Assembly: GCF_028641065.1 (NCBI RefSeq)
Contig: NC_073387.1
Coordinates: 6,944,001-7,008,000 of the forward strand
Direction of reading: 5' to 3'
DNA length: 64,000 nt
Origin: Leucoraja erinacea
Lineage: Eukaryota
A program made the translations under genes and the position numbers. Each line of letters starts with the position of its first letter. Positions within the stretch are counted from its first letter, which is position 1. Positions 66 through 62,297 of the stretch are shown piece by piece. The notes below the pieces were generated by a model. It saw nothing but the letters and a program-made list of their open reading frames with translations, was not told the origin of the DNA and made no database searches.

Positions 66-160
66 GTCTGAAGAAGGGTTTCGGCCCGAAACGTTGCCTA
101 ATCCCTCGCTCCATAGATGCCGCTGCACGCGCTGAGTTTCTCCAGCTTTTTTGGTGTACC
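66..160 (+). mobile_element. Penelope pLTR-derived short element with hammerhead-like core
   Basis: ctgaaga-a-gggtttcggccc-gaaacgtt at 68-95, followed by the family tail atagatgc...gctgagtttctccagc. Confidence 0.75.
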
Positions 161-1814
161 TTCCATACTGGTATTGTTGATTTACAATGCCAGAGACTAG
201 GTTCAATCCTGATTATGGATGCTGTCTGTATGGAGTTTTGTACATTCTCCCTGTGACCACGTGGGTTTTCTCCAGGTTGCCCCAGTTTCATCCCACATTC
301 CACAGACAGTGGGTTTGTAGGTTAATTGGCTTCTATAAATTGTGTCTAGTGTGTAGGTTGTGAAACTGTTATGGTTACGTTTATTGTCACGTGTACTGAG
401 GTACAGTGAAAAGCTTTTGTTGCGTGCTAACCAGTCAGTGCATGATTACCATCAAGCTATTTATTGTATTTAAGAATGTGATTGTAAGAAAGAATTTAAG
501 ATGTGATTGTAAGATAAGATTATAAGATCTGCTTCTGTGGCTAACACGCAAATGTCGCCTTGGTTGGGCACTATCTTGGAAGGAGATGGGTGTGAATGGG
601 TAATCAGTAGTCAGCATGGACTCGGTGGGCCAAAGGGCCACACTGTATCTCGAAATTAAAATAAATGCTATCATGGACATTTAGTTTTCCATCTGTGTTC
701 TGCACTAATGGTTTGCTTTTAATGCAGTCTTTTTGAACTTTTGTTCAATTAATGTATAATTTGTTTTTGTGTCTTTGCCTGAGTCAATGTGCATGTATTG
801 TCGTGAGTAAGATTTCCTGTTGTACCTTGCCTCATCATTTTTGTGCATATGACATTAAATTTGACTTGAGTTAAGCAGGGGGCAGAATTTCAGAATAAGC
901 GTTCAACCGTTCGAGATAGAGATGACAAAAACAACTCTTCACTAATGGGGAATCTGTAGATCTGTGTGCTCAAGAGGCTGGGAAGACTATGGCTGAGTAG
1001 CTCAAGGAAGGGAGCAGTAGATGGAGCCAGAATGAGCACTGAACCTGGAACGTTTTACAACTTAACATCGAATAGTGATTCTGGAAATCTGGGCTAAGAC
1101 TATTAGGAGTACTGCCTCCTCCTAAAAATAGACTTTGTATTAGTGAAAAGATTGAAAAATTAATTGTTTGACGCTTCGAGTTGCTACAACTGGGAATGGA
1201 ATCTCTAATAGAGGGCTATAGTGCACCAATTAGATTTAAATATTAATAAAAATGCACATAGTGTATACGGGATAAGCAGCAATATATTTGTATTGATATA
1301 TGTCCAGATTACACTGTCACTTGGTAGGTGTTGCTCAGTCAGTTTATTCAGCTAAGAAAATTTGAATGGAAGTCACTAAAATAGATAGCTAATTTTATAG
1401 GTCTATCATTACTGTTCTACAAATATATTTTAAAACTCTGTTGGATTTTTTTTTTCCTTCATTGAGCACCATTACTAAATACAAAAACGAGCAAGAAATT
1501 CTTGCATGTATATTGTGGCTCCATGATCTTGGACATCTCAAGGTGCATTAGAACCAACTTTAAAACAAAGCGAATATAGCAAACCTCCACAAGCACAGTG
1601 CCAAGATAATGGAGGCTGAATTGGATTGCTTTGTAAGACAGGCATGGAGATCACGGCATACAATTAACCAGTACTTATTCCTTGCAATCCAGGCAGCGCA
1701 CTCATTGGGTTGGCCGTTCACGTACACTGTTGTTTTTGCAATCACAGTGAAGTGAAGTGGCCGCATGTCGCGGTTGGGCACCCAATATCATAACTGGCTT
1801 GTAGTACATAAAGA

Positions 1815-2190
1815 TGGAATTGAAATGCTGCGGTAACTCAGCGGGACAGGCAGCATCTCTGGAGAGAAATAAAGGGTGACGTTTCAGGGGAGGATTTGAC
1901 TGCAGGTGGGGAAACAAGTGAGGAAAACTGCAAAAATGATCATTACATGATAGAGTGGGTTCATTGGAAATCAGATATAACATGGGAGGTCTCTCCACGG
2001 GGGGTTAGCACTCCACTGCAGCCTCATGCCAATTCTCACACTGGACACTGCTAGCTATTCCTCTATTAGACTAGACACGGTTGCCTAGTCAATGGTTGCC
2101 TCACCCATGTAAAGGAGGCCACATCGAGAGCATCGTGAGCCGTAGGCAAGGTTGGAAGAAGAGCACATGAACCTTTGTCTCACCTTGAAT
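1815..2190 (-). mobile_element. Decayed Penelope-like element 3' end with pLTR
   Basis: pLTR motif gtaactcagcgggacaggcagcatctctggagag...gtgacgtttc adjacent to degraded GIY-YIG-coding sequence similar to 6380-6700. Confidence 0.6.
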
Positions 2191-3059
2191 GATTATAGAG
2201 GCTCAGTTGTGAGTAAACTCAAGGTAGAGATCGCTAGATTTTGGCAGTCCAGATAAAAGGGGTTAATGGAGGAAAGCATCACTGTAGTAAATGATCAGCC
2301 ATGAACTCATTTGTTGACTGATCTTGGCTTCTGTTTCTCAGCTACTGTCACAAGCAATGGCAGCTGACTGACTGGGTCATTGGTGTAAATGGTGGTGGTC
2401 ATTAATGGTCAGCTATGCGTGTGCTAGAAGCACTACTCTTTACCAAACGAGGATGGTAAATATTCAGCTCTTTTTACACCGAGAAAATCAGTCGTACCTT
2501 CGTGCAATAATGGATGGAAAACTGCAATCTTGCGGACATGTTTGCCTCTAGCCTGAAAGGATTCTGTGCATGGGTGCATAAGAGGTCATGGCCTTGGTGA
2601 CCTTGACAGTCTTCTGCAATATGGTGCTCATTCTGCTCAGAGACCAGAACTGTGTCTGCTCCAGGTGTTGATTTCACCGAGAACTCCCTTACAGAAATGT
2701 CGTCTTGCACATTGCTCTTCAAAATGGCTCAGGTGGGATAATTGAGCTGAACAGCTTGGGCCTATTTGGTTTCTTCCCATGAGACCAACCCCTCCCTCCC
2801 CCTGCTTTGCATGTCCTCTGTTTACTTTCCCTATCACACTTCACTCCATGGGGAATGCACACTAATTTATCCATCTGTGGGCTCAAATGGTTTATGTAGT
2901 AGCCTTGAGACCAAGACTGTTCATCAATGTTTGGAACGATACTCTCATCACACCGGAACAGCGTATGAGGATTTGTCTAAAGCATCAAACACTTGTTTGA
3001 TTGTGATCACAGCTGGTGGAAATCAATCTGCCGCAAACCTGCACGTTGTTGTTGATCCC

Positions 3060-3802
3060 CCGGGACGGTTGCGGTGGAGAGGAGACGGTTGCCCACCTCT
3101 TTGCAGAGTGTGGGTTTGCAAAAAGAGTCTGGAGAGGTATGCAAGGGTCCCTGGAACGATTTATCCCGAACAGCTCCATCACAGAGGACTCTGTGATTTA
3201 CGGACTGTTCCCAGGGACACATTCAGAGACTGACATCGAGTGCTGCTGGAGGGTCATCAACTCGGTCAAAGATGCTCTTTGGTCTGCCCGAGCGTTGCTC
3301 ACCACCCAGCAGAGCGAGATGTCCGTCAGGGAATGTTGCCGACTGGCCCATTGCAGACTGCAGGAGTACATGCTAAGGGACTCGCTGAAGCTTGGTGCAG
3401 CCAACGCCAAGGCTCGGTGGGGGAGGGCCACAGTCTAGGGTCCTTCCGCTGCTGGACATAGGGGGCACGGTGTGGTAGAGACGCCCCTCAAATTAAATTA
3501 AGGGAAGGTATCCCACGCCAGGGGGCCACATGAGTGGCACGGGTGGGGGACATTATTTGTGGAAGTGAAAATGTCAAATGGAATTTTCGCACTGTAAACA
3601 CTGTATATATTTATTACTTGGACAGGGGCCACAGAGTGGCACGGGCGGGGGACTGTTTGGTGAAATTTGAAAAATGTAAAAAAATTGTACTGAAAAAACT
3701 TGTATAGTCTCCGAAAATGTCGGATGAATTTGTTTGTTTGAATGGTTCAGGAATTGTATATATTTATCAATGAATAAAGTCTATTTTGAAATAAAAAAAA
3801 AA
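3060..3802 (+). mobile_element. Tx1/L1-clade LINE, 5'-truncated 3' end
   Basis: ORF2 C-terminal zinc finger remnant (P)RDGCGGEETVAHLFAEC and conserved tail to stop at 3438; AATAAA and poly(A). TSD aaacctgcacgttgttg(t/a)tgatccc at 3035-3059 and 3803-3827. Confidence 0.9.
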
Positions 3803-3941
3803 AAACCTGCACGTTGTTGATGATCCCTTGTAAATGACGTGAGGTTGTCTCTTCTGATTGTGTCTTCAGCTGCGTGTGGCTGTGTGGGAACATTGGTTGG
3901 AGCTCTGCGTTCCACAATACCAAATGATCTCCATGTCTTTG

Positions 3942-4162
3942 GACAGGCACAAACAGCTGGAGGAACTCAGTGGGACAGGCAACATCTCTGGGGAGAAGGA
4001 ATGGGTGAACCTTCAGGTTGACACCCTTCTTTGGACTGAAACGTTTTGACCAGAAACGTCACCCATTCCTTCTCTCAAGAGATGCTGCCTGTCCCGCTGA
4101 GTTAGTCCAGCATTTTGTGTCTATCTTCAGTTTATAACAGCGTTTGCACTTTCTTCCTACAC
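3942..4162. mobile_element. Inverted pair of Penelope pLTR fragments (foldback)
   Basis: Arms gctggaggaactcagtgggacaggca and tgcctgtcccgctgagttagtccagc are reverse complements; degraded hammerhead cores in the centre. Confidence 0.75.
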
Positions 4163-6199
4163 GTCCATATCTCTAGTGTGAGTTCTCCAAACATGCGCAG
4201 TAGACCTGAAGCCTCTGGGTATCAGTGTGTCAATGCACCAGGTGATACCCAATGCACACCTCACTAATCCACACCCACTAATGCACACTTCATAGCACCA
4301 ACCCAATTGTTGCTATTGTTTCAAGGGTAAAATCATCCCTGCTGGTCAAGCATACACATCAAATCTTTTCCTGTATCTATCTATATAGCAGCCCCTCACT
4401 ATTGTACTGGAGACCTATTAATATGGGATGTAAACGCAACTTGTTCGAATTTGAGGTGCCACAGTGAAGGCTATTGTCATGTTACTGAGGTACAGTGACA
4501 AGCGTTTGTTGTGTGCTAACCAGTCAGCAGAAAAATGATTACAATTGAGCCATTTACAGTGTATAGATACATGATAAATGAATAACGTTTAATGCAAGGT
4601 AAAGCTAGCAAAGTCCGGACTGGCCAGAGTGAGACTCGTCCTAGATTATGTAGCTGGCATGACCTAGATGTCACCCCATGAAGGTACATATGAGATAACA
4701 GTGTAAATCAAATAGACTGCTTGCTGGCACCAGGCACATCTGGCAATGGTCTCCATTCTTCATAGATGAAAGCTGTAAGGGTAGCCCAAATCCAAAGCAG
4801 ATATTTTCAAGAGACCTGTGCACGCTTCAGCCCATGTGCCAACTCTCTCTCCCTCCTACATATACACACACACGCATACACCTTGTATACACAAGCCCTC
4901 TTTGTGCACAATGCATAAATCATCTCTCTGAAATTCTCTCCCACTCCCATACTGATGCAGAAACTCTCTCTCTCTCTCTCTCTCTTCTGTCTCATTCGCA
5001 TACATTCACATAACCTCTGCCCTTCTGTCCCATTTTGAATAGGTCATTGACTACAACAATCCCACCATTCAGTACTGTGACATTATATTATGCCTCAGGT
5101 GGAGAGTAGTTTTGTGAAACGGTGTCAGGGGGGCTGTAATATTTCAGTGCCTTGTCTTCTAATGTATTTTGAAGCTGATTCCTGCTTTTAATCACTCACC
5201 GACTGCAGAATGACACCACTCTTTATATGATCCAGCTGAAACTCATGCTGTTTCCATTGAACTTTGTGGGGGCCATCAACATTGCTCAGTCTTTTTTTTG
5301 AGGTGACGTAATGCTGAGAATGATCAATTCTGAGGAGCGGGCCAAGGTCCAAAATATACTTTATTGATGAGCTCATAAATTGGAAGCAAATAAGGAGGCC
5401 ATTGGCCTTAATGTTCCTTCTCTGGGTCTGGGAATCAACGAATTGCATCAATCTCGCTGTTCTGTCCTGTATTCTTGGCCCCAGAAGACTTTTCTCTTCC
5501 TTGATGTACATCCAAGATATTAATGTTACAATTGGACAGAAACTTAATTTCAACATTCAGATGATGCCATCTAACTATTGGCCAGTTTTGTGAGAGTTAG
5601 TTATTTTTCAATCACGGGTGATAAGTAAAATTATTTCTCCAACTTAATAAATTGCTCGTAAATGTTCGATCGCAGACAGTTTCTAGATGCATGGCTTGGA
5701 GTGCAGGGATGCTAACCAGGCTGTCCAAATGGAATGCTGCAGATTGGTGGGAGGTGTGGAGGAAGGAAGGGGAAGGAGTGGAGATTAGCTGAAGCTGTGC
5801 AGATGAGCAGCATAAACCACCATGATACTCATTGCTTCTTCATCGAGGGCTGTCCTAGTTATCACCCTCCGCGTTAGTTGCAGCTGACTGGCAAGTGCTA
5901 ATCGGAGGCACGTCACTGAAGTCGACGTGCAAATCATTTGTCTCCATTTAATGATATAAATTAATAAGTGATAGGAGCAGAATTAGGCCATTCAGCTCAT
6001 CAAGTCTACTCCACCATTCAATCATGGCTGATCTATCTCTCTCTCTCAACCTCATTCTCCTGCCTTCTCCCCATAACCCCAACTAATCAAGAATCTATCT
6101 ATCTCTGTCAAATATCCATTGACTTGGCCTCCACAGCCTTCTGTGGCAATTAACTCTACAGATTCAATCCACCCTCTGACTCCCAGAAAGAGAAGGTCC

Positions 6200-6375
6200 C
6201 CCATTGGGAGGGGGAATGGGGGGGGGGGGGGAAAGGGGATGGGCAGGGGGGGGGGGGGGGGGGGGGGGGGTGGGAGGGGGGGGGGGGGGGGGGGGGAGGG
6301 GGGTGGGAGGGGGGGAAGGGAGGAGTGGGGAGTGATAGAGGGAGGGGGGAGAGGGGGGAGGGGGGGAGGAGGGGG
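6200..6375. repeat. Poly-G/purine tract
   Basis: Runs of G interrupted by A; lies at the 3' flank of the minus-strand Penelope fragment. Confidence 0.9.
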
Positions 6376-6379
6376 TTTG

Positions 6380-7030
6380 TAGAAGTCACCTAAAATTAGA
6401 GAATTCAACATTTGTAAATGAGCCATGCAAAATGTGATTTGCTGTTCTTCCAATTTGTGTGTGGCCTCACTCTAGCAATGGAGGTGGACAGTATTGGAAG
6501 GGGAGTTAACATGGTTAACAAACTGAAAGATCCAGTATGCCTAGGCAGACTGAACGCAAGTGTTCGGTGTAATGGTCGCTGAGTCTTCACTTGGTCTTGC
6601 TAATGTACAGGAGCTCACGTCAGGACCACTGGATCACGTGCAATAGATAAGGTTAGAGGAGGTGCATGTGAACCTCTGTCTCAACTAGAAGGACTGCTGA
6701 TGTTCTTGGATGGATGTGAGGGAGTTGCGGTTGCAGGGGAAAGTACCTGGGAGGAAGAGGTTTGGGTGGGAAAGGATGAGTGAACCAAGGAGTTGTGGAG
6801 GGGAAAAGAGGTGGAGATAGGAAGATGTGATTAGTGGTTGGGCCATGTTGGAATGTTTGAGGAAATGTCAGATAATTATGTGTTGGAGGTGGAGGCTGGT
6901 GGGGTGAAAGGCGGGGACCAAGGGAGCTCTGTCCTAGTTGTGTCTGGGGGGAGAGGGAGTGAGAGCAGAACTCCAGGACACAGTAAATATGCAGGTGAGG
7001 GGTCCATTTATGACAGACATTCACTAAAGA
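6380..7030 (-). mobile_element. Decayed Penelope-like element (GIY-YIG region)
   Basis: Minus translation contains LLYISKTK*RLSDHYTEHLRSV, homologous to LLYIGETKSRLGDHFAEHL at 45340-45400. Confidence 0.75.
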
Positions 7031-7039
7031 ATGGATCAG

Positions 7040-7560
7040 TGTATCCCGGCAAGCCACGCGTGCGGCAGGAGTATCCCGGCAAGCCGCGTGGGCAGTTGAG
7101 ACTGAGGACTCGCTTGGCGGGTGGCTCTGACCAGCGAGGCCCCCCAGGAGGCTGCGGAAAAGCTGGGCGACGAAGCCTGTCTTGGCTGATGGAGCTTCGG
7201 CGGCAGTGGTGAGACTTCGACAGCGATGATGGGGCATCAGCGGCGGCGGCAGCGGTCAAGCCTCGCGGCGGCGGTGGAACCTCGCGGCGGTGAAGCCTCG
7301 CGGCGGTGAAGCCTCGCGGGTCGACCCGCGGTTGGCAATTGATGAGGAGGTTTGGGGGGGAGCTCCGTCATGGAGGGGGAAGAACAATGGAGGACTCGGC
7401 GTGGGGGGGACCACCGTGACTGGATGGGGGGGACAAAGGAGGAACTGGTGGCGGGTACTTTTAACTTTGTAAGTGCCATTTATGAGGCAGCTATTTGGAT
7501 ACCCAAGCAAGTAAAGTTTCATTGTGACTTGTCACATGTAACAATAACGTATTCAATTCC
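7040..7560 (+). mobile_element. GC-rich non-autonomous retroposon with internal tandem repeats and Rex1/Babar-type 3' tail
   Basis: gcctcgcggcggtgaa repeats at 7258-7320; ends with tttcattgtgacttgtcacatgtaacaataa stem-loop tail. Confidence 0.6.
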
Positions 7561-8129
7561 ATATTGATTTGGTCCCAGTGACCGCTGGGGTGAAGATCAG
7601 AAACACTATCTGTGTTTGTCGCCCGAGTGGGAATTGTACTGATTCCTCGCCCCAGATCTCTCTCCAATTACCTCCTTAAATCAATGTACGCGGAGAACAC
7701 AAAGAGGGAAACATTACACAATTGCTATTTAGTTTCAACTTTACAATTAATGGAATTTGATAGCCTATTTATAACGTCTGAGTAATCTATAATTCCTGAA
7801 GCTGGTTTTGGTTTCAATGTGCTCATAGTGATGTTCTTCTTGCTACTGTGCAGCAGTCAAGAAGAGAGTTGGTGCAGGCTGCTAATCACCTACTGGAAAC
7901 ATAAGGATTAACATCTGTGATCTACTCGAACAGTTCATACAAGTCTAATGTTTAAGAAAGAACTGCAGATGCTGGAAAAATCGAAGATTGACAAAAATGC
8001 TGGAGGAACTCGGCGGGTGAGGCAGCATCTATGGAGAGAAGGAATAGGCGACGTTTCAGGTCGAAACCCTTATTCTGACTGATGGGTTGGCAACTTTCTG
8101 AAACTCAACCAACTTAATCTTAAACTTGC

Positions 8130-8950
8130 TGTCCTGAGATCCAGATTTAAGTTTTCAATCACATATCTACAACATCACTAGACCACCTGCATCTACCCCT
8201 GTGAAATAGCCGACCTCAGCTCAGTTTCTGCTCATTTTCTCAACCATGCCATGGTTATTTCCAGACTCGACTATTCTAACAAATACCTGAGCAAACCACA
8301 AAGTGCTGGAGGAACTCAGCGGGTTAGGCAGCATCTGTGGAGTGATTGGAATGGTGACATTTGGGGTTGGGATCCATCTTCAGAAAGATTCCAGCAGCAG
8401 CAGTTCCTTATGTTTCCTATACCTAGCTGATTTCTACCCTGTTGTCTGTAATCTTAAACTCATCCAAAAGATTGCCCCTATTTCAACTTGAGTTTTAGCA
8501 ATATTGGTTCCTGGTTAAGCAACATCCTGATATTCGTTTTCAAATCCGTTATGCACTCCAACTTGCGTTTTGGCAATATTGGTTTCTTGTTGGGCAACAT
8601 CCTGACATTGTTTTTCAAATCTGCTATGCACCCACAGCTTCCCATCTCTATGACCTCAAATGCTACAACCATATGTGAAATCTGTAGTCCTTTAAATCTG
8701 CCTTCTTGGACATCACTACATTTGTTTGCTTACCCATTGGCAGTTTGTCTTCAGTTGGCAGGAGCCCTAGACCTGGAATTCGTTCTCGCAACCCGAGGCT
8801 CTTTTTGTCCCCATTTAGCAAGTTCCTGAACACCTTTTTCTTGGAACTGAGCTTTTGGGTACCAGCCTTATTGTTTCTTTATGTGGCTTGTGGCCAATTA
8901 TTTTTGGTTGAGGATGCTCCTGTAATGTGCCTTGGGGCAAATTTGCTCCG
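8130..8950 (+). mobile_element. Old L2 LINE fragment with internal 75-bp tandem duplication
   Basis: HAMVISRLDYSN-like motif at 8245-8280 and WFLVKQ (L2 HWLPVK-like). Unit starting 8484 repeats at 8559. Interrupted by a pLTR fragment at ~8295-8410. Confidence 0.6.
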
Positions 8951-9204
8951 TTATAGTTGGTGCCTCTTTAAAACCTTAAATTGCATTGACAGAATGGAAC
9001 AAGGACTGCAAAAGACAAGTTGTGAGTGCAAAGCTTAACATGCAAACATACTATTAGGATCAGGTCCATGGTAGATGCCATCTCCCTGGCCCTACTTTCA
9101 TCCCTGGAAGACCTAAAGAACAAGGTCACCTTTGTTGGACGCCTATTTACTGATGTAACTTTGCCTTCAACACCAATCAAACACATCTCCAGACTCCTGG
9201 ACCT

Positions 9205-11049: not shown

Positions 11050-12030
11050 CTATGAAACAGAACTTAAAATGGACTGGGCAAACACCCCAGGTTCGATAAG
11101 TGGTTTATTATAAAACCGCTGAAAAGTCAGTTCATTTGACCATCCTGCGGCCGCGAGGATATGGTCTAGAGGGACGTCCATTACCCTCGCTGCTGACGTT
11201 GATGCCGCCCTGGTGGAGTGAGATTTAAAATTGTCAGCATTAACTCCTGCACAGACCAGCACTTGTTTCAGCCATCTTGAAATGGTCTGAGCTGACACTT
11301 TCATATGTGGCTTTTTGTGGCTAATAAATAACGATAGTTCCGAGCCTCTGAGACCCTTGGTGACCTCGATATAACATCGCAAGTGCGCCACTACACATAG
11401 TCGTAAATCCGTGGGATATGCTGACAGTACAAGTTTGAATCCTGACACCCCTGGTCTGCTCTATTTTATAAGATTTTAGATGTAAAATATGTAATTCCCA
11501 GATGACACCATCCTGTCCAGTCGCAACTTCTGCAGAGTCTGAACCCTTTGCGCTGACACCAACGCCATGAGCATGACCAACTTCAGGGTAATCTTCACCA
11601 AAGACAAGGATGTGGCTGGACCCCACTGACAAAGCAGCGTGAGTACCACACTCGCATCCCAGATTTCTGAATATCTAGGCCTGGGGGGATTGGAATTAAA
11701 AACACCCTTCATAAACCGGGATATTAACGGATGAGATCCTACAGACTGTAGTTCTGACTCCAAGCAGAAGTACAATGATAGAGCACTCCTGGCACTATTG
11801 ATGGCACTATAGCTCAACTTTTCATCAAAGTACAACTTGGACAGAGACTCTAACACATCTGGGGTGGAAGCTGCGTGGTAACTAATGTTCCCTTGTAAGC
11901 AAAACTCCTCCCATTTCCTGACATGAGAGATGTACTGCTTTTTGGTACTGTCCCTCCAGGATGATGTGATGATATCCACGGTACGATTGTATAATCCCTG
12001 ACCCAGGTATGGCCTCCTTAAAACCTGCAA
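11050..12030 (-). pseudogene. DIRS tyrosine recombinase (frameshifted)
   Basis: ORF pieces 11476-12030, 11321-11632 and 11050-11448. SWRDSTKKQY N-terminal motif; SAQRVQTL (catalytic R); KSHSTRAAS (HxxR); AAGWS; FQRFYNK (catalytic Y). Confidence 0.9.
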
Positions 12031-12174
12031 ATTAACAAATTAATACGATCATACAATGGGTGTTGATCCTCAGTCACAGGGTGCACCAATAAGTTATTAC
12101 ATTTTGGATCCACCATAATAGGTTGAGTTATAATGTCCGATGGTGGTACAATAAGCTTTAAGCCCATAAAATTC

Positions 12175-13330
12175 TCACAATAAATAATTAATTCCATGTG
12201 TCTGCAGAATAAATGCCAAGCACATTCCATCTGCCTCCACAGCTAGAGATGGTATCAGTAGCCCCCCAACAATTGCGCTAACATCAGTCTGTAACACAAC
12301 TGAAGGTGCTTCTATCAAAATTTTGCTGGAACAATTTGAAATGTTTCTTATCCACCACTGTACTTCGGCAATAGCTTCAATTGGTAATTTCATGGGTCTG
12401 TTGAAATGACCTGCATATATTCTAAGTGCCTGTGCCTTTGCCCTCTGTAAATGTTGGTAATGCAAAGGTCCATGCTGCGCAGCTGGAATGGCTGCTATTA
12501 GTTTGCCAATCAAGCTAGCCACATGCCTAATTGAAGGTGATTGCTCTCCAATGAGCTTGATACAGCCTTCAATTAAATCTAATCTCTTGCCCTTGGGCAG
12601 AGTTACAGACATGTGATTTGAATTAACTGTGAATCCCAGATAATCAATAATTTTAACTGGTATCAACTTTGATTTAGTTGGATGGATGAGAAACCCCAAT
12701 CTCTCAAACATGAGTTTAACAGCTGAAACATAACTCAGCTGCCTCCTGACTTTTTCCAATTATTAAGATATCATCCAAATAAGCCATTACAATATGACCT
12801 TGAGCCTGGAGTAGCCCCAGTACTGGTTTTAGCAGCTTTGTAAATAATCTAGGGGCTGAGGTTAGTCATTAGGCAGCGCTTTAAATTGCCACAATTGCCT
12901 CATCCAGCTAAATTTCAAATATCTCCGATAGTCTTTATGAACAGGCACTGAGTAATATGCATCCTTTAAATCTATACATGCCATATAACACCCTCTGGAA
13001 ACCAATTGCTTGGCAGTCTCAAATGTTTCCATTTTGAAATGTTTATACTGCACAAACGGATTAAGGTCTGTCAAGTCCAAAATAATCCGACTTCCACCAT
13101 CTTTCTTTGGTCGAGGAAATATATTAGATACAAATTGGTGAGGTTGACAAACTGTCTTCTCAATTACACCTTTTAAATATAATTTTCCAATTTCAGCTTG
13201 AACCTCCAAATTCTCTTTTTGTGAGAAAATGAGTGCCCGCCGTGGGGTATGTTGAGTAGGCGGACACAAATTGGGAATTAATTCAATTCAAAACCCTTGT
13301 ATAGTTTGCAGTATAAACAACTCTGATGTT
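12175..13330 (-). pseudogene. DIRS reverse transcriptase / RNase H (disrupted)
   Basis: RIILDLTDLN, HFKMET, IDLKDAYYSVP, FKALP, then VMAYLDDILII read on minus at ~12760-12795, YLGF, and RNase H start LQTDVS; stops and frameshifts present. Confidence 0.9.
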
Positions 13331-14065: not shown

Positions 14066-14207
14066 AGGATGGGGCTAAAATTCAAAATGGGTTGCAAATG
14101 AAAGGACTTGCAGTGAAAGGACTTAGTAAACAGACATTTAATAAAATAACATATTGCGTACAGATTTGGAACATGAGGTGTAGCTTTAAAAAAAAAGGTT
14201 TAATTTG

Positions 14208-14578
14208 TAGGTGTAGGAAAGAACTGCAGATGCTGGTTAAAACCAGATGGACACAAAGCTGGAATCACTCAATGGGTCAGGCAGCATCTCTGGAGAAAAG
14301 GAATATGTGACGTTTCGGGACGAGACCCTTCAGACTGAGCATCAGGGGAAAGGGAAACGTGAGATATAGACGGTGATGTAGAGAGATATAGAACAAATGA
14401 ATGAAAGTTACGATGATCGAGGAAAAGGGCCTGTATCTCTCTATATCACCATCTATATCTCTCATTTTGCTTTCTATTGACTGTCTGAAGAAGGGTCTCG
14501 ACCCAAAACGGTACCCATTCATTTTCTCCATAGATGCTGTCTGACCGGCTGAGGTATTCCAGCTTTTTGTGTTTATCC
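14208..14578. mobile_element. Inverted Penelope pLTR pair with 13-bp TSD
   Basis: TSD aaggtttaatttg at 14195-14207 and 14579-14591; reverse-complementary arms; hammerhead-like core at 14485 with GAAA mutated to AAAA. Confidence 0.85.
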
Positions 14579-49010: not shown

Positions 49011-49473
49011 CTAGTTTGTGTCATCTGCCCAACCGATCACGATCCTGCTGCAATTTCTGACAACCATCTTCATTATCTACAAAACCACCCGATTTCATGG
49101 CATGATTCATATTGTGATATCTTTGTTTCTAACTTCCCTTTTTTTCAGACGTGCGAGACAGGCAGCTGGTCTCAATTAACTTTGAACGCACAGCTTTCGA
49201 AGCTCTACCCCATTCGTCGGGTTATTGGGCTCTGTGTGGTTGCAAGCACAGTGCTAATAAATACTCAGCTGAGAATTGTCCCTGTGCCAGACAATTTTGG
49301 AGACCAAGTGGCTTCTTTCCGGGTCCATTTTTTATGGCCAATAGACCTAACTTTACATTGTTGCTTTTGTTTCTTATTGATAATTCCGCTTTGAACTTAT
49401 GACATGTCATATGCTGAGAGATGACAGTCATTTGCTGAGAGAATGGAGCAGCTGGACTTGTACACTCTGGTTA

Positions 49474-49750
49474 CACAGAAAAGCTGGAGAAACTCAGCGG
49501 GTGCAGCAGCATCTATGGAGCGAAGGAAATAGGCAACGTTTCGGGCCGAAACCCTTCTTCAGACTGATCAGGGGTGGGGGTGGGTGGGGACAAGAAAGGG
49601 AAAAGGAGGAGTAGCCGGAAGGCTGGAGGGTGGGAGGAGACAGCAGGGGAGCTGAGGAAGGGGAGGAGACAGCAAGGACTAACAGAATTGGGAGAAGTCG
49701 ATGTTCATGCCCCCGGGGTGCAGACTCCCCAAACGGAATATGAGGTGCTG
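49474..49750 (-). mobile_element. Young Penelope 3' end with intact hammerhead-like core
   Basis: Minus strand encodes QHLIFRLGSLHPGGMNIDFSQF, then cagtctgaagaagggtttcggcccgaaacgttgcc (plus coordinates ~49533-49567). Confidence 0.88.
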
Positions 49751-50247
49751 TTGTACACTCTGGTGTTTAGAAGGATGAGAGATCTCATTGAAACATATAA
49801 GATTGTTAAGGGCTTGGGCACACTAGAGGCAGGAAACATGTTCCCGATGTTGGGGGAGTCCAGAATCAGGGGGCCACAGTTTAATAATAAGGAGTGAGCT
49901 ATTTAGAACGGAGATGAGGAAACACTTTTTCTCACAGAGAGTGGTGAGTCTGTGGAATTCTCTGCCTCAGAGAGCGGTGGAGGCAGGTTCTCTGGATGCT
50001 TTCAAGAGAGTGCTAGATAGGGCTCTTAAAATATAGTAGAGTCAGGGGAGATGGGGAGAAGGCAGGAACGGGGTACTGATTTGGGATGATCAAAAAGGAT
50101 TCAAAGGACATTTATTATCACATACACCAAATGGTGTAGTGAAATTTGATCATGTGATCAGCCATGATCACATTGAATGGAGGTGCTGGCTCGAAGGGCC
50201 AAATGGCCTACTCCTGCACCTATTTTCCATTGTCTATTGTCTATTGT
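49751..50247 (+). mobile_element. CR1 LINE 3' end with a short Rex-type tail inserted at ~50095-50150
   Basis: LYTLVFRRMRDLIETYKIVKG...; (CTATTGT)n tail. Confidence 0.88.
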
Positions 50248-51844
50248 CATCTTCCCTTTAAATGTGAACTAAAGGATGTTACCTGTAGATGAAATGTGTG
50301 GGAAGGAACTGCAGATGCTGGTTTACACCAAAGATAGGCACCAAATGCTGGAGTAACTCAGCGGGACAGGCAGCATCCCCAGTGAGAAGGAATGGGTGAC
50401 ATTTCGGATCGAGACCCTGTGCAAAAGTTTTGACCCGAAACTTCACACATTCCTTCTCTCCAGAGATGCTGCCTGTCCCGCTGTTACTCCAGCATCCCTA
50501 TAAAGTATTTTATGGTCCCAAATCATTTTGATTAATGGTCTCAGTGTGGGACCTGTTTTTATTTGTGCCTCCAAGATTCACTACCCACTGCCAGAAGAGG
50601 TTTCTCCTAATTTACCTGTTAAACCGTTTATCTTGAACCCTTGTTCAAGACTCCTCCCTTGTGGAAAACATTCCTCCCATTCCTAATTTATCTAGGCCTC
50701 CATGGTTTTCTATGTTTCGATGATGCTCGCTCTCATTTTACTGAGGTCCTGAGGATTGGGTATGGAGAGGATGTTTCCACTCATGGGAGAGTCTAGGACC
50801 AGAGGTCACAGCCTCAGAATTAAAGGACGTCTTTTAGGAAGACCAGGAGGGATTTCTTTAGTCAGAGGGTGGTGAATCTGTGAAATTCTTTGGTACAGAA
50901 GGCTGTGGAGGCAGTCAGTGGATATTTTTAAGGCAGAGGTAGATAGCACATGATTGAATGGCAGAGTAGAATTGATGGGCCAAATAGCCTAATTCTACTC
51001 CTATTCCTTATGACTTTATGATGGGGGGCCACCTTATTCAATCACCCCTCATAAGAACGGATTTGTCATTGCAGGAACCAGCCTTGTATATCTTTGTTGC
51101 ATTTCTTTTGAGCGAGAATATCCTTTATTAATTAAGAACAGCATTATACTTCACTGGTCAATTGGCTCCTTCAACGGTACAGAGTTCTCCCTATATATTA
51201 GCAGTCCAGGTTATTTATGCAAGGCCTTCTCACTGAAGTGAGAGAAGCACTGAGCACCATGTGATGCTGTTGGTTCTTTGGTATGTAGCTGAACAACCAG
51301 GTGGGACCTCCATTTAGCTCCTGTTCTGAATGGTGATGGATCAGGCTACTCTTCCTCGCAGAGCTGGCACTGCAGTTAGCTGCCTGTGTCTGAAGAAGGG
51401 TTTTGGCCTGAAACGTTACCTATTTCCTTTGCTCCATAGATGCTGCTGCACCCGCTGAGTTTCTCCAGCATTTTTGTGTACCTTTGATTTTCCAGCATCT
51501 GCAGTTCCTTCTTGAACACATCAGGTTTGATTCAGTCAGTTTCCCAATTGGAGAGTTTATTTAAAGTTACTTACAATTCTCTCTTGACCAAAGCAGTTGG
51601 ATAATTGGCATGTCCCAATGGTCCTGTCCTACATGCTGATTAGTTGCTGTCTTTACCCAAGTCTCTCTACATTTGAATTTAATCTTGTTGTGGATCTTTG
51701 CAAAATTTCTGGGGAATGCAATACACTGTTTCGTTGATGGTAAGTTCCTCATTCTTTGTTAACTGGCTTGAAACTGATGGATACTGATAATCACATTGTT
51801 GAATCCCAAAGATTAATAATTTCTGTTTGTGAAATATGATTATT

Positions 51845-53043
51845 TCTGGGGTACCGCAAGGCTCAGTGCTGGGACCCCAGCTATTTACAATATATATTAA
51901 TGATCTGGATGAGGGAATTGAAGGCAATATCTCCAAGTTTGCGGATGACACTAAGCTGGGGGGCAGTGTTAGCTGTGAGGAGGATGCTGGGAGACTGCAA
52001 GGTGACTTGGATAGGCTGGGTGAGTGGGCAAATGTTTGGCAGATGCAGTATAATGTGGATAAATGTGAGGTTATCCATTTTGGTGGCAAAAACAGGAAAG
52101 CAGACTATTATCTAAATGGTGGCCAATTGCGAAAGGGGGAGATGCAGCGAGACTTGGGTGTCATGGTACACCAGTCATTGAAGGTAGGCATGCAGGTACA
52201 GCAGGCAGTAACCTGTGCACCACCAGCTTTCAGGAAGTATAGCTCCAGATCCCCCTGCACTAATGGCTCCCCAGGGCCGAACCATTCACCCTGGCCAATA
52301 TTTTTCCCTGTGAATGCATTATTACTCAGCAGCACATTCTTTCCAATGGCTCTTCAGAAGAAAGCAAATCCTGAATAATGATTTTGGCTTTCATAGCAAA
52401 AGGATTTGAGTATAGGAGCAAGGAGGTTCTACTGCAGTTGTACAGGGTCTTGGTGAGACCACACCTGGAGTATTGCGTATAGTTTTGGTCTCCAAATCTG
52501 AGGAAGGACATTATTGCCATAGAGGGAGTGCAGGGAAGGTTCACCAGACTGATTCCTGGGATGTCAGGACTGTCTTATGAAGAAAGGCTGGATAGACTTG
52601 GTTTATACTCTCTAGAATTTAGAAGATTGAGAGGGGATCTTATAGCCAAACTTAAAAAAATTAAAAATGACAGGGTTGGACAGGCTAGATGCAGGAAGAC
52701 CCACGAGGTCCGATGTTGGGGGAAGTCCAGGACAAGGGGTCACAGTTTAAGGATAAGGGGGAAATCCTTTAAAACCGAGATGAGGAGAACTTTTTTCACA
52801 CAGAGAGTGGTGAATCTCTGGAACTCTCTGCCACAGAGGGTAGTTGAGGCCAGTTCATTGGCTATATTTAAGAGGGAGTTAGATGTGGCCCTTGTGGCCA
52901 AGGCGATCAGAGGGTATGGAGAGAAGGCAGGTACGGGATACTGAGTTGGATGATCAGCCATGATCATATTGAATGGCGGTGCAGGCTCGAAGGGCCGAAT
53001 GGCCTACTCCTGCACCTAATTTCTATGTTTCTATGTTTCTATG
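51845..53043 (+). mobile_element. Young CR1 LINE, RT C-terminal part to 3' end, with a foreign mosaic segment
   Basis: [50 protein letters not shown]; (TTTCTATG)n tail. Confidence 0.93.
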
Positions 53044-53790: not shown

Positions 53791-55249
53791 GGCCTGGCCA
53801 ATATTTATCCCCGTGAATGCATTATTACTCATTCTTACAGAGCACATTCTTTCCAATGGCTCTTCAGATTTTTTGGTACTGGCATCCTAGAATAATGATT
53901 TGTGAGTCAGACGCCTTTACTGGCACTTCATTAATTGTGGGCTTCATATCTGGGCCTGGTAATACTTCAATTTCAATTTATGAATGAATGGATTATACTT
54001 TTATGAACTATACATACTTTGCCACCATGCCACCCCCTGGAGTGCTTGTGTACTGTTGCTGGTTGGTAGTATGATGATGAGTGATGGGGTGATGATGCAT
54101 GATTGGGGTCATTATGACACGTGACATGTCACAGTGATATTCTTTGTTTTCCGCACACAAGAGTTGCCACGTATAGGGCATCGACAAAGTTACAAAGTAG
54201 TCCATTTTGTCCCCAATGGGCCCCCCTTTGTTCTCGACGCCCCCCACGCGGGGCCCCCCTTTATTCTCGACGGACCATTTTGCCATGCACCAATAAAACA
54301 CACAGCTAAAAATGACATGTTTGGTATATGTGAAAACCCACGAGGTCACGGGGAAAACGTACAAACTCCATACAGCCAACACCCGTAGTCGGGATCGAAC
54401 CTGGGTCTCTGGCGTTGCAAGCGCTGTAAGGCAGAAACTCTACCGCTGTGCCACCTCTTGGAGTGCTTGAGTGATGAGGTGATGGTGAAGGATTTGGGTG
54501 ATTGTGAGCTTGTTGATGGGAGAGTGTGTTTGGTGGGTGTTGGGATAGTTATGGTTTTGAGGTGAGCATGGTAGATGGCTGATTGTGGTAGGTTGGACTT
54601 GGTGGCGTGGTTGTTCCGTTGGACTGCTTGTGAGACAGTGGAGTGGGTGTTATAGTGATGGGGGGTTATCTGGTGATGGGGTGGTCTGTAGGCTATTGGG
54701 GGTGGTGTGATAAAGGGGGTATTGGGTGTGGGAGGACGATGGAGTAGTTTGTGTTGGGTTGGTGTGATGGTGGGTGTTGAAGATGTGCAGATAGTGGAGT
54801 GATTCTGGTGCAGTGCATTGTGTGGTAGAGGTTTTCTAATCCCCTACCTTTTTGAAGCTGTGAATTTTAATTCCAGCTTTGCTCCCTCATACACTAACAG
54901 TTGTAATAACCTAAATTCTGATATTTTTATTTTCCATCAGTGCCATAAAACATCGCTAAATTATAGTGTTTAGATTCAAATATTATTCCTGTTCTTGGCT
55001 TGCGATATTCTTGTAGACTGCTCAGCAAACAGACTGTCAGACTAACATATACACAGACTATTCTATTTGCTTTTGACTTCAGAGATTACATCCAATCATC
55101 AAAATGCCCAAAATCAGACCTTGTGTTGATGCAGACATTGTGGAATTGCTTGAGCTCAGAATAAGCTTAGACGCTGGTTCCAGTTAAGGTAAACTGGTTT
55201 AAAATAGACATGGATTTATTGCTAGCTAAACCAAATAATAGAATCAGGT

Positions 55250-55704: not shown

Positions 55705-55995
55705 TGGGCAGCATGGTGGCATAGTGGTAGAGTGTCAACCTTACGGTGCCAGAGACCTGGGTTCAATCTTGACTGCAGGTGCTTGTCTGTATGGAGTTTG
55801 GATCTTCTCCCTGTGACCTGCGTGGATTTTCTCCGGTAAGCCCTGGTTTCCTCCCACACTCCAAAAACATACAGGTCTGTAGGTTTATCAGCTTGGTATG
55901 ATTGTAAATTGTCCCCAGTGGTGTTAGTGTGCGGGGATCGCTGGTTGGTGTGGACTCGGTGGGCTCGAAAGGCCTATTTCCGCGCTGTATCTGTA
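55705..55995 (+). mobile_element. HE1-like V-SINE
   Basis: Box A/B-like motifs, V-domain and tail. Confidence 0.85.
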
Positions 55996-58280
55996 ACCAA
56001 AAAAACCCTAAACATTTCATACAATGCCACAAGTTTTTCAACTTTGAAACTTAATGGTCTGACCAATGAAGGAAACCATGAATGTGTCTGGGAGCAGCAA
56101 GTAGTAAATCATGAGATAAGGGGGTGGGAGCAATTGGAGGCAGGTGGGAGCGAGGGAACCAGTGTGGTGTCTAACTGGGTAGTTCTGCTCTCATGCTGGA
56201 CATGAACAGAAATTTGGGCAATTACCGCCTAACATTTGAATTCAACCTGGGTTTCAGTCGTGGTTTACAGAGCCATTCGAATGGTAGCAACATGATAGCC
56301 ACAACTGGCGGACAAAAACAAGCAGCACAACTATTTCCAACGTGGCAATTGATTTCTTTCAAACGTTAAGCAAACAGAAAAAAAAGGCCAATAATCAGTA
56401 AAATTATTTTTGTCTTTTTATTTAGTCTGGAATCAGTATTGGCCAATGTTTACCACCATAAACCCTGAATAAATATAGGAAACATACGATAATACAGCCA
56501 GCTGGATTAAAAGTGCAGATGGTGCGGCAGACGAAATGAGGCCTAAAAGCATTCCTCTAATGCACTTTGGTTAAAATTGAATCATTCTAATACGGGGGGG
56601 GGGGGGGATGCATTCTATTCCTCTCTAACATTCTCTAACAAATGCTGAATTATCATTCTGGTTTCATCGTAAGACATCATCCAAATGACCTACTTTGTGC
56701 TGTTGGACAGAAGGCTTTTTGACAATGGATTACATCCAGACCTGAGTTTTCCTTTATACCTGGAGTGGGATATTCGCACAGACAGAGAGCTCTGGCTGGC
56801 AACTGTACAAATGTGCGACACCCTGGTAAATACTGTGCTGTCTGCCTCGTGCTTATGAATTGCGATGCAGGTCTAGGAGGCGCAATACTGAGCATGTGTA
56901 ATAATTTCCAAGTCCTGAGCTGACTCTGTGGGGAAAACCAGGCCAGCGCAGTGACAAGGCTGATAGAAACCAGAGGCCCAAGCAGCAGGGAAAGCAAATT
57001 CACCAGCCTCTACTTGACACAGTTTACAGAGTTGCCTGCATAAATTTTAAAGAAGTATTTTTATGGAGTTGAGCATTTGCCCCCCGAGATAAATGGAATT
57101 GAGTTTTTCCAACACATAATCTCAAGAAAAACATTCTGCAAAATCAAGGAAGTGGTATTAAATGTTTACATCTCAAGAGTACTGTTCACAAAGTACTGTG
57201 TAGGAAGGAACTGCCAATGCTGGTTTAAACCGAAGATAGACGCAAAAAGCTAGAGTAACTCAGCGGGTCAGACAGCATCTCTGGAGAAAAGGAATAGGTG
57301 ACTTTTTCAGGTCGAAACTGCCGAGTCTGAAGAACAAAGACATATTCTTTTTCTCCAGAGATGCTGTCTGACCCGCTGAGTTACTCCAGCTTTTCGTGTT
57401 TATCTTCATGCTCGGAGTACTAACAGGTTTTCAGTTAGCGGAAAACTCAGAAGTGTTGGGCATAATCTGGTAAGATTCATAGGGATATCATCAGAACCAA
57501 CAGGATGTGGCTATCAGAAATGATTTGAATAGCTTACTCTTTCCTCTGGGTGCAAGAAAATCACCCTGGGGTTTGATGAAAAGGATTTGGAGAGCAGTGT
57601 TTTGTTTGCAAGATTGGAATAACTTCTTCTTCCTCGAGTCCGGCCATCTTCTATATTCCATCTTTCCGGTCGGTCAGTAAAGGTTGATGGTCGGTGGTTG
57701 CAGAATTGGCTACTTCAGACAGTCACTGTGGTACAGTTTCTGTCGTCAGCATGCGTCACGACTGGAATAACTGGATTACTGAGGAAAGAGACACCACGAG
57801 TCCAAACAAATAATTTAGGAGGAGATTTTTGGCACTATGTAATGAGATTGCTGTTGGGATGTGAAGAGGTCAGTAGGGGAATGACATAGACTGGTTGGTC
57901 ACACCCACTGGAGTATTGATCACACCCAATAAACTCCCGGAGATGGTTACCCAGCACATCAGTCCTTGCATTAAGCAGCTCATCCATAGCAACATACTCT
58001 GTGTAACCTCACATTTCTTTTTTTACAAACAAGGAACTGCAGATGTTGGTTTACAAAAGAAGACAAAGTGCTGGAGTAATTCAGTGGGGTCGGGCAGCAT
58101 CCCTGGAGCAGCAGGAATTTGAGGGGTAGCAGTAAGAGAAGGTCTCAAAAGAACTCCTGTTGGAGAGAGGAGGGGTTGTTTTTCAAAGTAGGCCAAGGAT
58201 GCTGCTTGACCTGCTGAGTTACTCCAGCACTTTGTGACTTGTTTTGATGTTAAATACTATTCACGTCTGGGTTCTATCGC

Positions 58281-58958: not shown

Positions 58959-59094
58959 CTGAAATGTGTGTACAGGGGTTCTCTGTGAATTGGACACATC
59001 ATATATAGATGACCTAGGACATGCACAGTGTCATCCATTAACATGTCTGGATATCACACCCAGGACTTCCGATCATGTAGGACTGGCCCATGTG

Positions 59095-59678: not shown

Positions 59679-60318
59679 GTGCAGTCTACTGCAAGCTTAC
59701 AAACTTTCTGTGACTTGTCTGTATTGATTCTATGGGAATGCACTGAACAGACCCCCTTAAGGAACTGACTTGTTCGATTGTCCCTCCTCCCAAACTGTGC
59801 AGCAACTTTCCCTCCACACTATCAGGGATGGCTCAATGGTGCAACGGTAGAGTTGCTGCCTTACAGCGCCAGAGTCCTGGGCTTGATCCCGACTGCGGGT
59901 GCTGTCTGCACAGAGTTTGTACATTCCTTCCTGTGACCGTGTGTGGGTTTTCCTTGGTGCTCCGGTTTCCTCCCACACTCCAAAGACACATAGATTCACT
60001 CAATTTCCTTGACTTGTTCTGCAGTGGCTGAATGAGAGGTGGAAGCACTTTATCTCAAGTCAGGCCCTTTTATCATTCTTGATGTTGGGCCAATAACAAA
60101 ACTATTGTGGTTGAATTTCCTCTCTCTATTAACGGGCACAGAGATTTTTGGTAATGGGCTGCCTGTATGTACTACAGAGCTGTAGCAGGTCTGCAACTTT
60201 TACACTAATCATTTAGTGGCTTTAAACTCTGGAAGAACTCAAATGCATCATGTTGGTCTTTGCAGATGCGGGATATTCAAAGCATTGAATTAATTACGAT
60301 GACTAAAAGATTCAGGAT

Positions 60319-60420
60319 AGACAAAAATGCTGGAGAAACTCAGCGGGTGAGGCAGCATCTATGGAGCGAAGGAATAGGTGATATTTCGGGTCGAGACCCT
60401 TCTTCAGACCCTTCTTCATC
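60319..60420 (-). mobile_element. Single Penelope pLTR insertion with 16-bp TSD
   Basis: TSD ctaaaagattcaggat at 60303-60318 and 60421-60436; core gtctgaagaagggtctcgacccgaaatatc on minus. Confidence 0.88.
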
Positions 60421-60942
60421 CTAAAAGATTCAGGATGATCAGATGAAGGTGTTATCTACAGCTTAGCGCCAGTGGATTTACCATTTTTACTTTGGATTTC
60501 GAGCATCCGTGTTTATTTTTCAATTTTCATTGACTTTCCAAAGCACTTTGCTCGTGGGTGTGAAAGCGGCTTCATAAATACAACCATCTTGTATCAGGAG
60601 AGGAAAAGATAGAGAAAGAAAAAGTAGTCAGCATCCGACTAGAGGTGGTAGTTTGAATGAAAGCTTCAGGATGTTTTGTATTGCTGGAAACAGATGAATG
60701 GATTTGCGAATCTATTACACAAAGTCAGGTCGGCACTATTACCCTTGGAGCAGGAAAGGATAGCTGAAGATCTGATGGCTGTTTTCAAAATATTTAATTA
60801 TAGTTTCCTTTAACTTAAATCAGTTGTGATGGATCATCAATTCAACGTTACACAGAAATGACAACAAAAGCTGTTTATTCTAGCAACAGTTAGTGTGTGT
60901 CTTCCACATGAAATATAACTACCATGGGCAGTCGTTACAACT

Positions 60943-61225
60943 AGGGCGGCACGGTGGCGCAGCGGTAGAGTTACTGCCCCAGAGACTCGGGTTCAATCCC
61001 GACTATGGATGCTGTCTGTACAGAGTTTGTACGTTCTCCCCGTGGCCGCGTGGGTTTTCTCCGAGATCTTTGATTTTCTCCCACACTCCACTAACATACA
61101 GGTTTGTAGGTTAATTGGCTTGGTATGAATGTAAAATTGTCCCTAGTGCGTGTAGGGTAGTGTTAATGTGTGCGTGGATCGATGGGCCGAAGGACTTACT
61201 TCCGCGTTGTATCTCTAAACTAAAC
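60943..61225 (+). mobile_element. HE1-like V-SINE
   Basis: gggcggcacggtggcgcagcggtagag start, box B, V-domain, ctaaactaaac tail. Confidence 0.88.
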
Positions 61226-62096
61226 TACGTGACAGTTAACCCCTTCCTATCAATCACCTGTCTAACCTGTTTTTAAAATAATGGCAGTAGAGGGGAATCT
61301 AGAGATAGCTACTTTTCAGCCAGTCGAGCAACTTCTCTATTTCTGTTGTGCTGCTGTGGTTTAGTGTGACAAATGGATGGGTATTGCACTGTTGCTGTGG
61401 CCACTAGTCAAAGCCTCGCCTCTCTGCCCTTCATTGAGTTGGGTCACAGTGCGTGAATTCAATAGGAAATGTTTCCTCCCTGTGTGATGGAGAACACTGA
61501 TGTCTCTAAATATTCCCCCATTACAATAGAAAGAAGTTGAATAAAGTGTTGCACATCCTTAACTTCCTTCTCTTATCTATACATTTTCAAGCTGTCATTG
61601 AGTATTTCATTGTCTCAGGGCTCACTTCCCTTTTTCTAATTCTTTATCTGAAATCCTTCGGCTTACTTTCCACAATGTAAGGATTGTAGTTGTCATTTGG
61701 AATGTATTTCCTCCCTCTGAGTCTGTCAATCCCGCTTGGTGTCTGTGCCTTCATCTGCTCCAGATTTCCACGCCTTGCTTCCCAATCTCCACTCCGTCAT
61801 TCCCGAAGCACAAAGTTAGTCACCAGTACATCTCACGTCTTCTCTATTCGCCTCCCTTGTGGATGGCCCCATTGTAAACATGTACTGTCTTTCAGCTGAC
61901 TAGTTAGCATACAATAAAACAGCTTTTCATTGTACCTCGGTTCACGTGACAAGAGACTAAACTCCGTCTAAGTCATTACTACCAGCTTTTCATCTCCCGT
62001 CTTTTCCCAATAAATATTTAAGATTCTGTGTGTATCCCAAAGACCATGATTGTGCTGCGCTCAGTTCAGCCACAAATAATAATGATAATAATAATA

Positions 62097-62297
62097 GTAG
62101 GAAGGAACTGCAGATGCTGGTTTACACCAAAGATAGACACAAAATACTAGTAACTCAGTGGGACAGGCAGCATCTCTGGAGAGAAGGATGGGTGATGTTT
62201 TGGATCCACCTTTTGGACCCGAAACGTCACCCATTCCTTCTCTCCAGAGATGTTGCCTGCCCCGCTGAGTTACTCCAGCATTTTGTGTCTATCTTCA
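62097..62297. mobile_element. Inverted Penelope pLTR pair with TSD
   Basis: aatgataataa at 62081-62091 and 62298-62308; complementary arms. Confidence 0.8.

Follow-up and report, generated by a model that had tools for sequence, protein, structure and literature searches.

Short hammerhead-bearing repeats of the skate Leucoraja erinacea as likely cut-short copies of a young Penelope-like retrotransposon

The pseudo-long terminal repeats (pLTRs) of metazoan Penelope-like retrotransposons carry a minimal hammerhead ribozyme (Cervera and De la Pena 2014, PMC4209133; this paper, like the others cited below, is drawn on in part), which is characterized by CUGANGA, a G10.1-C11.1 pair, GAAA, a palindromic 15.2-16.2 stem without loop 3, and UH. 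We analyzed a 64,000-nucleotide stretch of the genome of the skate Leucoraja erinacea (NCBI RefSeq assembly GCF_028641065.1, NC_073387.1, positions 6,944,001 to 7,008,000; hereafter the window), in which a first-pass annotation had noted a high-copy family of short repeats with a hammerhead-like core. We consider it highly probable that these repeats are the 3' pLTR end of a Penelope-like retrotransposon that is young, autonomous and endonuclease-bearing, that its own reverse transcriptase (RT)-endonuclease likely inserted them in a cut-short and often two-armed form, and that their motif represents the minimal type I hammerhead already known. The skate motif resembles the described form in all of the above traits, in the extra base before stem II (40 of the 42 family hits described below), and in occurring mostly as single motifs tied to truncated elements, with opposite-strand pairs 100-700 bp apart. 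Its stems are shorter than those of the S. mansoni form (4 vs 7-8 bp for stem II and 2 vs 4-5 bp for stem I), and cartilaginous fish are not named in the portions of PMC4209133 on which we rely.

Three other systems are close to the skate element. Endonuclease-bearing (EN+) elements of the Neptune/Nematis type (PMC8557442, PMC3846280) share with it the RT, a cysteine linker, a C-terminal GIY-YIG endonuclease, partial tandems and target-site duplications (TSDs), as well as head-to-head arms, a one-sided tail (30-40 bp there) and palindromes at inverted junctions. Unlike these elements, the skate copies show no microsatellite targeting in the TSDs that were inspected, and most of the insertions measure only 100-250 bp; the portions of the two papers used here mention no one-base 5' hot spot at the edge of the ribozyme for EN+ elements. 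The anole Poseidon element PAc (Frangieh et al. 2024, PMC11167929) initiates reverse transcription in vitro at two internal sites that define the tail, and the skate copies resemble it in this, in the priming of both strands, in an uncut RNA template and in the lack of ends at the cut, as far as these can be read from genomic copies. The open reading frame (ORF) of PAc starts inside the ribozyme, whereas the ATG of the full skate element lies 165 nt after C3, beyond the tail, and the activity of PAc was measured, whereas the skate element is known from sequence alone. Non-LTR retrozymes (PMC7229834; bioRxiv 10.64898/2026.07.22.740005) also have a type I hammerhead, kinship to pLTRs and non-coding short copies; however, they form head-to-tail tandems with a ribozyme per unit and circles, whereas the skate copies are solo or head-to-head and belong to the same subfamilies as the coding element.

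Because the element type, the ribozyme and the layout are known, the finding itself is ordinary. What is new here is the genome-wide count of 5' ends at one-base resolution and its tests against a cap G and against splicing. Our literature searches returned no description of a one-base 5' peak, and the supplements of PMC11167929 (Fig. S2), PMC4209133 and the bioRxiv preprint may bear on it.

The hammerhead module and its coding element

The genome sample consists of 80 pieces of 10 kb, which together with the window make 864 kb, and loci fetched from the genome are labeled L with a number. Positions in the module are counted from C3 of CUGA (+1), the preceding base being -1, and the predicted cut lies 3' of +28. 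A hammerhead core was found downstream at 24 of 30 fetched GIY-YIG loci, 107-453 nt past the match (all within 570 nt), supporting the link to GIY-YIG coding DNA that the first-pass annotation had drawn from two places in the window. The core does not follow the coding DNA directly, as had been stated, but is separated from it by a pyrimidine-rich spacer of ~215 nt at 45822 (a core whose C3 has changed to G) and of ~130 nt at 49562. The copy at 49472-49750, which contains the endonuclease end, is itself flanked by a TSD, implying that endonuclease-bearing and non-coding copies are one kind of insertion, differing in length.

Querying the genome with the RT returned many young copies, and the 20 loci with the longest frames have open frames of 686-1052 aa. 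Both ORFs that were scanned (771 and 807 aa) contain RVT_1 (E 1e-6 to 3e-6) followed by GIY-YIG (E 0.006-0.007) in one frame, with scores below the Pfam curated cut-offs. Between the RT and the endonuclease, a cysteine linker (CX2-5CxxC) is present in the translations of L034, L051, L056, L060, L229, L237 and L240; this linker is a Neptune trait that is also found in Nematis (PMC8557442). Three of the 20 long-ORF loci (L223, L230, L239) have a direct 5' pLTR with a tail, giving the order pLTR (module and tail), ORF, pLTR (module without tail). Judged by its sequence, the module thus appears to be the 3' pLTR end of a young autonomous EN+ Penelope-like element with the layout of Neptune/Nematis.

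A minimal-hammerhead descriptor gave 45 hits in the 864 kb, compared with 1.2 in shuffled sequence, and 42 of the 45 belong to this pLTR family. As had been proposed, the motif agrees in all traits with the minimal type I hammerhead described from Penelope pLTRs (PMC4209133): the conserved core, the extra base after A9, the G10.1-C11.1 pair, the palindromic stem III, and UH. An Rfam covariance search of the window gave 11 matches at E ≤ 10, none of them to a hammerhead family. In line with the earlier caveat that stem I can be paired over only about 2 bp, it has 2 bp in 24 of the 42 hits and at least 3 bp (3-4) in five; of the 112 and 107 candidate donors through which splicing might extend stem I, none contributes over 4 pairs. 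For D. virilis, too, a helix I of 2 bp is reported (PMC4209133).

The core is more conserved between subfamilies than its flank, as predicted: among five subfamily consensuses, none of the 15 invariant positions differs, compared with 19 of 67 downstream positions (Fisher p = 0.017). The changes at +1 to +29 fall in loop II, at H17 (C/U), or are one-sided and keep the pair (U-A/U-G) in stems I and II, and the core CpGs are kept in 5/5 consensuses while being mutated in 17-23% of the copies. The invariant core and the persisting CpGs point to selection on master elements, with copies that decay. Against a strong role of ribozyme selection, no two-sided compensatory change was found in the hammerhead stems among the five consensuses, and invariant blocks and one CpG persist downstream as well.

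When folded in context, stem II has a pair probability of 0-0.05, and the dimeric hammerhead reaches -7 kcal/mol compared with -22 to -25 for the best co-fold (15-18 kcal/mol above). This unfavorable folding makes cutting without protein unlikely, and the models predict that the hammerhead cuts poorly or not at all without the element protein. In the anole element, cutting by the ribozyme depends on protein, and insertion in vitro does not need the ribozyme (PMC11167929). In the consensus fold of eight copies, the core purine run pairs with the tail, with a two-sided change in one of 26 pairs. At L239:2533-2670 and in the alignment, this predicted long-range core-tail pairing would exclude the hammerhead fold and has no covariation support; modeled in this way, it could possibly act as a switch.

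Abundance, subfamilies and ends of the copies

A search with a profile built from 16 tailed copies found 44 arms in the window, making up 31 insertion units of which 13 are head-to-head; the previous estimate of about 20 insertions was therefore too low. Outside the window, 323 arms were found in 800 kb of the genome, 277 of them in the 700 kb far from the window, which extrapolates to ~0.87 million arms in the genome, with ~3.8% of the sampled bases covered. A degenerate 28-mer of the core has 40,789 exact matches in the genome and its reversed control none; this is far above the 2,000-9,000 motifs quoted in PMC4209133.

The short copies were suggested to be independent insertions, and their own TSDs bear this out. 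The five TSDs that had been claimed in the window are present, at 14195/14579 (13 nt), 15681/16197 (10 nt, exact), 29231/29848 (8 nt), 30681/30913 (12 nt) and 60303/60421 (16 nt), and three more were found at 48/166, 49458/49751 and 62081/62297. For comparison, two random 44-nt stretches share a word of at least 10 nt with p = 0.0015 and of at least 8 nt with p = 0.026. The further claim, that the short copies form a non-autonomous family of their own, was not supported. When 326 full-module arms (252 short, 74 long) were grouped into five clusters, all five contained both short and long copies, the youngest with 50 short and 21 long young copies, and the nearest neighbor carried the same short/long label with a concordance of 0.60 compared with 0.65 after permutation (p = 0.88). 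Tandem cores are nearly absent: two intact cores occur in one of 51 same-strand neighbor pairs in the 864 kb, a count that leaves room for rare arrays elsewhere in the genome. The junctions are individual: of 99 young copies, a set partly picked by first base, 35 have a TSD (10-18 nt) close by, and these comprise 16 with microhomology, one blunt and 18 with filler, and the upstream flanks of edge copies, which start at the front edge of the ribozyme, are not common between copies. Together, the mixed clusters, the individual junctions and the near absence of tandem cores suggest that the short copies derive from the autonomous subfamilies and do not form a retrozyme or a lineage resembling short interspersed elements (SINEs); by their sequence, they are likely cut-short copies of the full Penelope-like element.

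Filler sequence at 5' junctions frequently consists of short stretches copied from the core, as at 60394-60418 in the window and at L243, L248 and L251. We take such core-copy fillers to indicate that the cDNA end annealed repeatedly.

The 5' ends were mapped in 307 arms (671 hits, 534 of them with the anchor, 363 well aligned, minus 56 that were preselected for an intact core). The rate of 5' ends per nucleotide is 0.130 at -8 to +1, 0.037 at +2 to +10, 0.016 at +11 to +28, 0.013 at the cut (+29/30) and 0.007-0.015 upstream. At the predicted cut there is no peak of copy starts, with five of 195 arms across 2 nt. For the youngest subfamily, nested exact counts in the whole genome gave 15,778 for the core, 14,359 with T, 13,060 with GT, 10,121 with AGT, 8,465 with CAGT and 6,587 with ATCAGT in front of it. 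Corrected for chance and mutation, these correspond to 3,300-3,650 starts at G(-2), 760-1,060 at -1 and 780-950 at -3, and the peak at G(-2) (~3,500 of the 15,778 young cores) is thus four times either neighbor. A(-3) is not polymorphic in long copies (98/104), and G(-2) is the outer base of the 2-bp stem I. The pyrimidine-rich flank is seen in only two of 41 simple edge copies, arguing that the 5' peak is no gap in the library. Core-tail pairing was considered as a cause of the stop and rejected, as tailed (32/43) and tail-less (44/63) arms stop alike.

At the other end, 145 of 367 arms end at +88 to +104, 146 at +120 to +131, and two at the cut site, which puts the two 3' ends of the short copies at about +90-99 and +123-131. 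Head-to-head pairs outnumber tail-to-tail pairs (86 vs 29, p = 1e-7), and in 64 of the 86 exactly one arm has a tail. The two 3' ends, the one-sided tail and the head-to-head arms are known Penelope traits (PMC8557442, PMC3846280), and palindromes at inverted junctions have also been noted (PMC3846280). In the skate, TCAG-T-CTGA at -5 to +4 of the module forms an interrupted palindrome at the ribozyme edge, for example at 49559-49567 (-) and at L171, L193 and L186, and several head-to-head junctions turn on it.

Copies and other repeats in the window

The copies and the related RT fragment in the window are as follows.

66-165 (+): simple tail-less short copy starting at the front edge of the ribozyme; core 68-95 with predicted cut 95/96; TSD 48-57 / 166-175
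1809-62933: older decayed units, starting at 1809, 8284, 10209, 15439, 21477, 24565, 25289, 26888, 28024, 42013, 46712, 47923, 58028 and 62856
3942-4161: old head-to-head (inverted) unit; right arm tailed; cores decayed
7950-8082 (-): simple tailed copy; core decayed
14195-14591: head-to-head unit; part of the pyrimidine-rich spacer in both arms; tail only in the left arm; 13-nt TSD 14195-14207 / 14579-14591
15681-16206: complex unit of a minus-strand arm with intact core (C3 at 15781) and plus-strand arms with a local duplication; 10-nt TSD 15681-15690 / 16197-16206
18816-19750 (+): decayed fragment with RT and cysteine linker, belonging to this Penelope-like family and found by tblastn to the RT ORFs of L191 and L192; no module
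29231-29855 (-): simple copy of ~100 bp; core 29818-29845; split by a later insertion of ~515 bp (29301-29815); 8-nt TSD 29231-29238 / 29848-29855
30681-30924: head-to-head unit turning at the core front edge; tail only in the left arm; 12-nt TSD 30681-30692 / 30913-30924
45199-45949 (+): 5'-truncated copy with GIY-YIG end (frame 45199-45660), then a pyrimidine-rich spacer and a tailed module whose core (45822) is decayed
49458-49764 (-): young tail-less, 5'-truncated copy with the last endonuclease codons, spacer and intact core 49535-49562; predicted cut 49535/49534; 14-nt TSD 49458-49471 / 49751-49764
50297-50495: head-to-head unit; both arms break within the core; left arm tailed
51387-51517 (+): simple tailed copy from G(-2); core at 51390; no TSD found
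57198-57408: head-to-head unit; left arm tailed
60303-60436 (-): simple copy from G(-2); 12-nt filler copied from the core; 16-nt TSD 60303-60318 / 60421-60436
62081-62307: head-to-head unit turning in stem II; left arm tailed; 11-nt TSD 62081-62091 / 62297-62307

The complete core bases (CUGANGA, GAAA, UH) are retained in seven of the 44 window arms. All five cores quoted in the first-pass annotation are present, those at 68-95 (+), 29818-29845 (-) and 49535-49562 (-) exactly, and those at 30819 (+) and 51390 (+) in a slightly decayed form with changes in stem II. The unit at 29231/29848 has the TSD that was assigned to it; it is, however, no single insertion but a ~100-bp copy interrupted later by another repeat of ~515 bp.

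This ~515-bp repeat (29301-29815, also at L042, L160 and L168) is young, with copies 95-96% identical, 70 hits in the fetched loci and an 8-nt tandem end, and is likely the 3' end of a long interspersed element (LINE). A decayed element at 11050-13287 (-) contains RT (RVT_1, E 4e-5) together with frames resembling a tyrosine recombinase (Phage_int_SAM_4, E 5e-4), a layout that we take to be that of a DIRS-type retrotransposon. A second abundant short repeat with ~15 hits (181-260, 16937-17014, 18571-18645, 41225-41303, 54344-54420, 55741-55818, 60979-61047 and others) presumably resembles the V-SINE/HE1 type of cartilaginous fish. LINE RT fragments lie at 38190-38672 and 51833-52944 (RVT_1, E 2e-11 at 51833-52375), and we assume that they are CR1/L2-like.

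Proposed mechanism, alternatives and significance

In the mechanism that we propose, the element protein would nick both target strands, and each nicked end would prime reverse transcription at one of two internal start sites, yielding one arm with a tail and one without. The RNA template would be copied uncut, the cDNA would run to a stop at the ribozyme front edge, and its end would be joined to the target or to the other arm via microhomology or filler. Selection would act on the master elements, and the copies would decay. The counts suggest that the G(-2) peak may be the RNA 5' end of the template, our preferred reading of the peak, to which we give slightly less than an even chance; it would account for the one-base sharpness and the 2-bp stem I. 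A bolder version, which we put forward tentatively and with some doubt, is that the copies are strong-stop-like cDNA: the mRNA would start at G(-2) with the hammerhead at its 5' terminus, RT primed in the 5' pLTR would run off, and hundreds of thousands of the products would have been integrated, either singly or as pairs of cDNAs that started from the two target ends and lie head-to-head, with the ribozyme serving as a protein-triggered decapping switch. Stem I would then be exactly 2 bp (U(-1), G(-2)) because the mRNA begins at G(-2).

Several observations weigh against this account or parts of it. The tail frequency among simple copies is alike in edge (32/76), internal (33/77) and long (11/30) copies, so that two template classes are not separable. 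At L221, L228 and L235 there is a long inverted tailed arm, and tailed arms reach 600-900 nt upstream, implying that many templates pass the edge. Most of the simple copies have no detectable TSD (one is present near the 5' end in 25/174, compared with 11 in the control). There is no excess of a cap G before AGT, where G makes up 493 of 1,656 non-C bases (30%), and before GT it makes up 1,106 of 2,939 non-A bases (38%, compared with ~31% plus mutation). One extra G is present in three of 18 TSD-checked GT-start copies; since this set was picked for G, we do not count it as support for a cap. An initiator consensus would favor A(-3) over G(-2). The Neptune label is drawn from the layout. Among indexed sequencing runs, no RNA run was listed with a match, and in all four raw RNA runs the reads cover the RT body on both strands, a stretch that is uninformative on the ribozyme and the pLTR. 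Within this body, at L230:2600-3390 (element on minus), most single reads of two single-cell runs are on the plus strand, opposite to the element; if the reads follow the RNA strand, this signal would be largely antisense read-through from the host.

The 5' edge could alternatively be a stall, in which proteins on the pyrimidine tract and the CAG before the core (a 3' splice site like that of the Penelope intron in D. virilis, or a C-rich site bound by protein) block RT on unspliced RNA. YCAGT is kept in 90-98 of 104 endonuclease-linked copies behind the pyrimidine-rich spacer, with -7 to -10 variable, the D. virilis intron ends at the 5' end of helix I (PMC4209133), and element sequence is still present at -6 in ~40% of the young cores (6,587/15,778). 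The equal tail frequency in short and long copies and the lack of a clear cap G are also consistent with a stall. However, the one-base peak is probably sharper than a footprint stall would suggest, and it falls on G(-2) instead of on T(-1), which directly follows the AG. Two subfamilies do not retain the GT at the ORF stop, and among 101 simple edge copies a single one has clear element sequence upstream, namely the copy inserted into an older element. The search likewise turned up no spliced copy, as the two loci with an endonuclease end near the core reflect insertion into an older element and internal deletion. We regard the stall as possible, if somewhat doubtful. At L156 / L242, a young short copy sits in the endonuclease end of an older family member and mimics the spliced form. 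As a candidate in its own right, an intron from the ORF stop to the CAG was rejected because its donor is not conserved, no spliced copy was found and splicing does not lengthen stem I.

A second question is whether the ribozyme still matters. It might be a dead relic whose core is kept as a promoter, an RT-binding fold or for pairing with the tail, and the 2-bp stem I, the GUU triplet in the youngest subfamily, the unfavorable folding, the consensus fold that pairs the core purines with the tail, and the long invariant blocks and CpG that persist downstream would all agree with this. We nevertheless think it unlikely, because the changes at +1 to +29 are confined to loop II, H17 or one-sided pair-keeping, the core CpGs survive in every consensus despite the mutated copies, and both a 2-bp helix I in D. 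virilis (PMC4209133) and a protein-dependent ribozyme in the anole (PMC11167929) are on record. Far less probable is a separate SINE-like or retrozyme-like non-autonomous family with short masters, in which the hammerhead excises the unit. The sharp common 5' end, the own TSDs and the ~0.87 million arms would suit such a family, and non-autonomous Penelope-like derivatives have been described (PMC8557442; bioRxiv 10.64898/2026.07.22.740005, with one chondrichthyan listed). It is largely refuted by the presence of short and long copies in every subfamily, by the scarcity of same-strand pairs with two intact cores, by ends that lie ~30 nt before the cut and not at it, and by junctions that vary by copy in microhomology or filler, with unshared upstream flanks of edge copies.

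If the strong-stop reading is true, the start site of the mRNA would be recorded in the genome to one base. From the one-base 5' peak and the lack of ends at the cut, one can directly test at which point the template begins and whether ribozyme action precedes copying. With young full-length copies and ~0.87 million arms, the steps of Penelope-like replication, which are still poorly known, become readable from the junctions.

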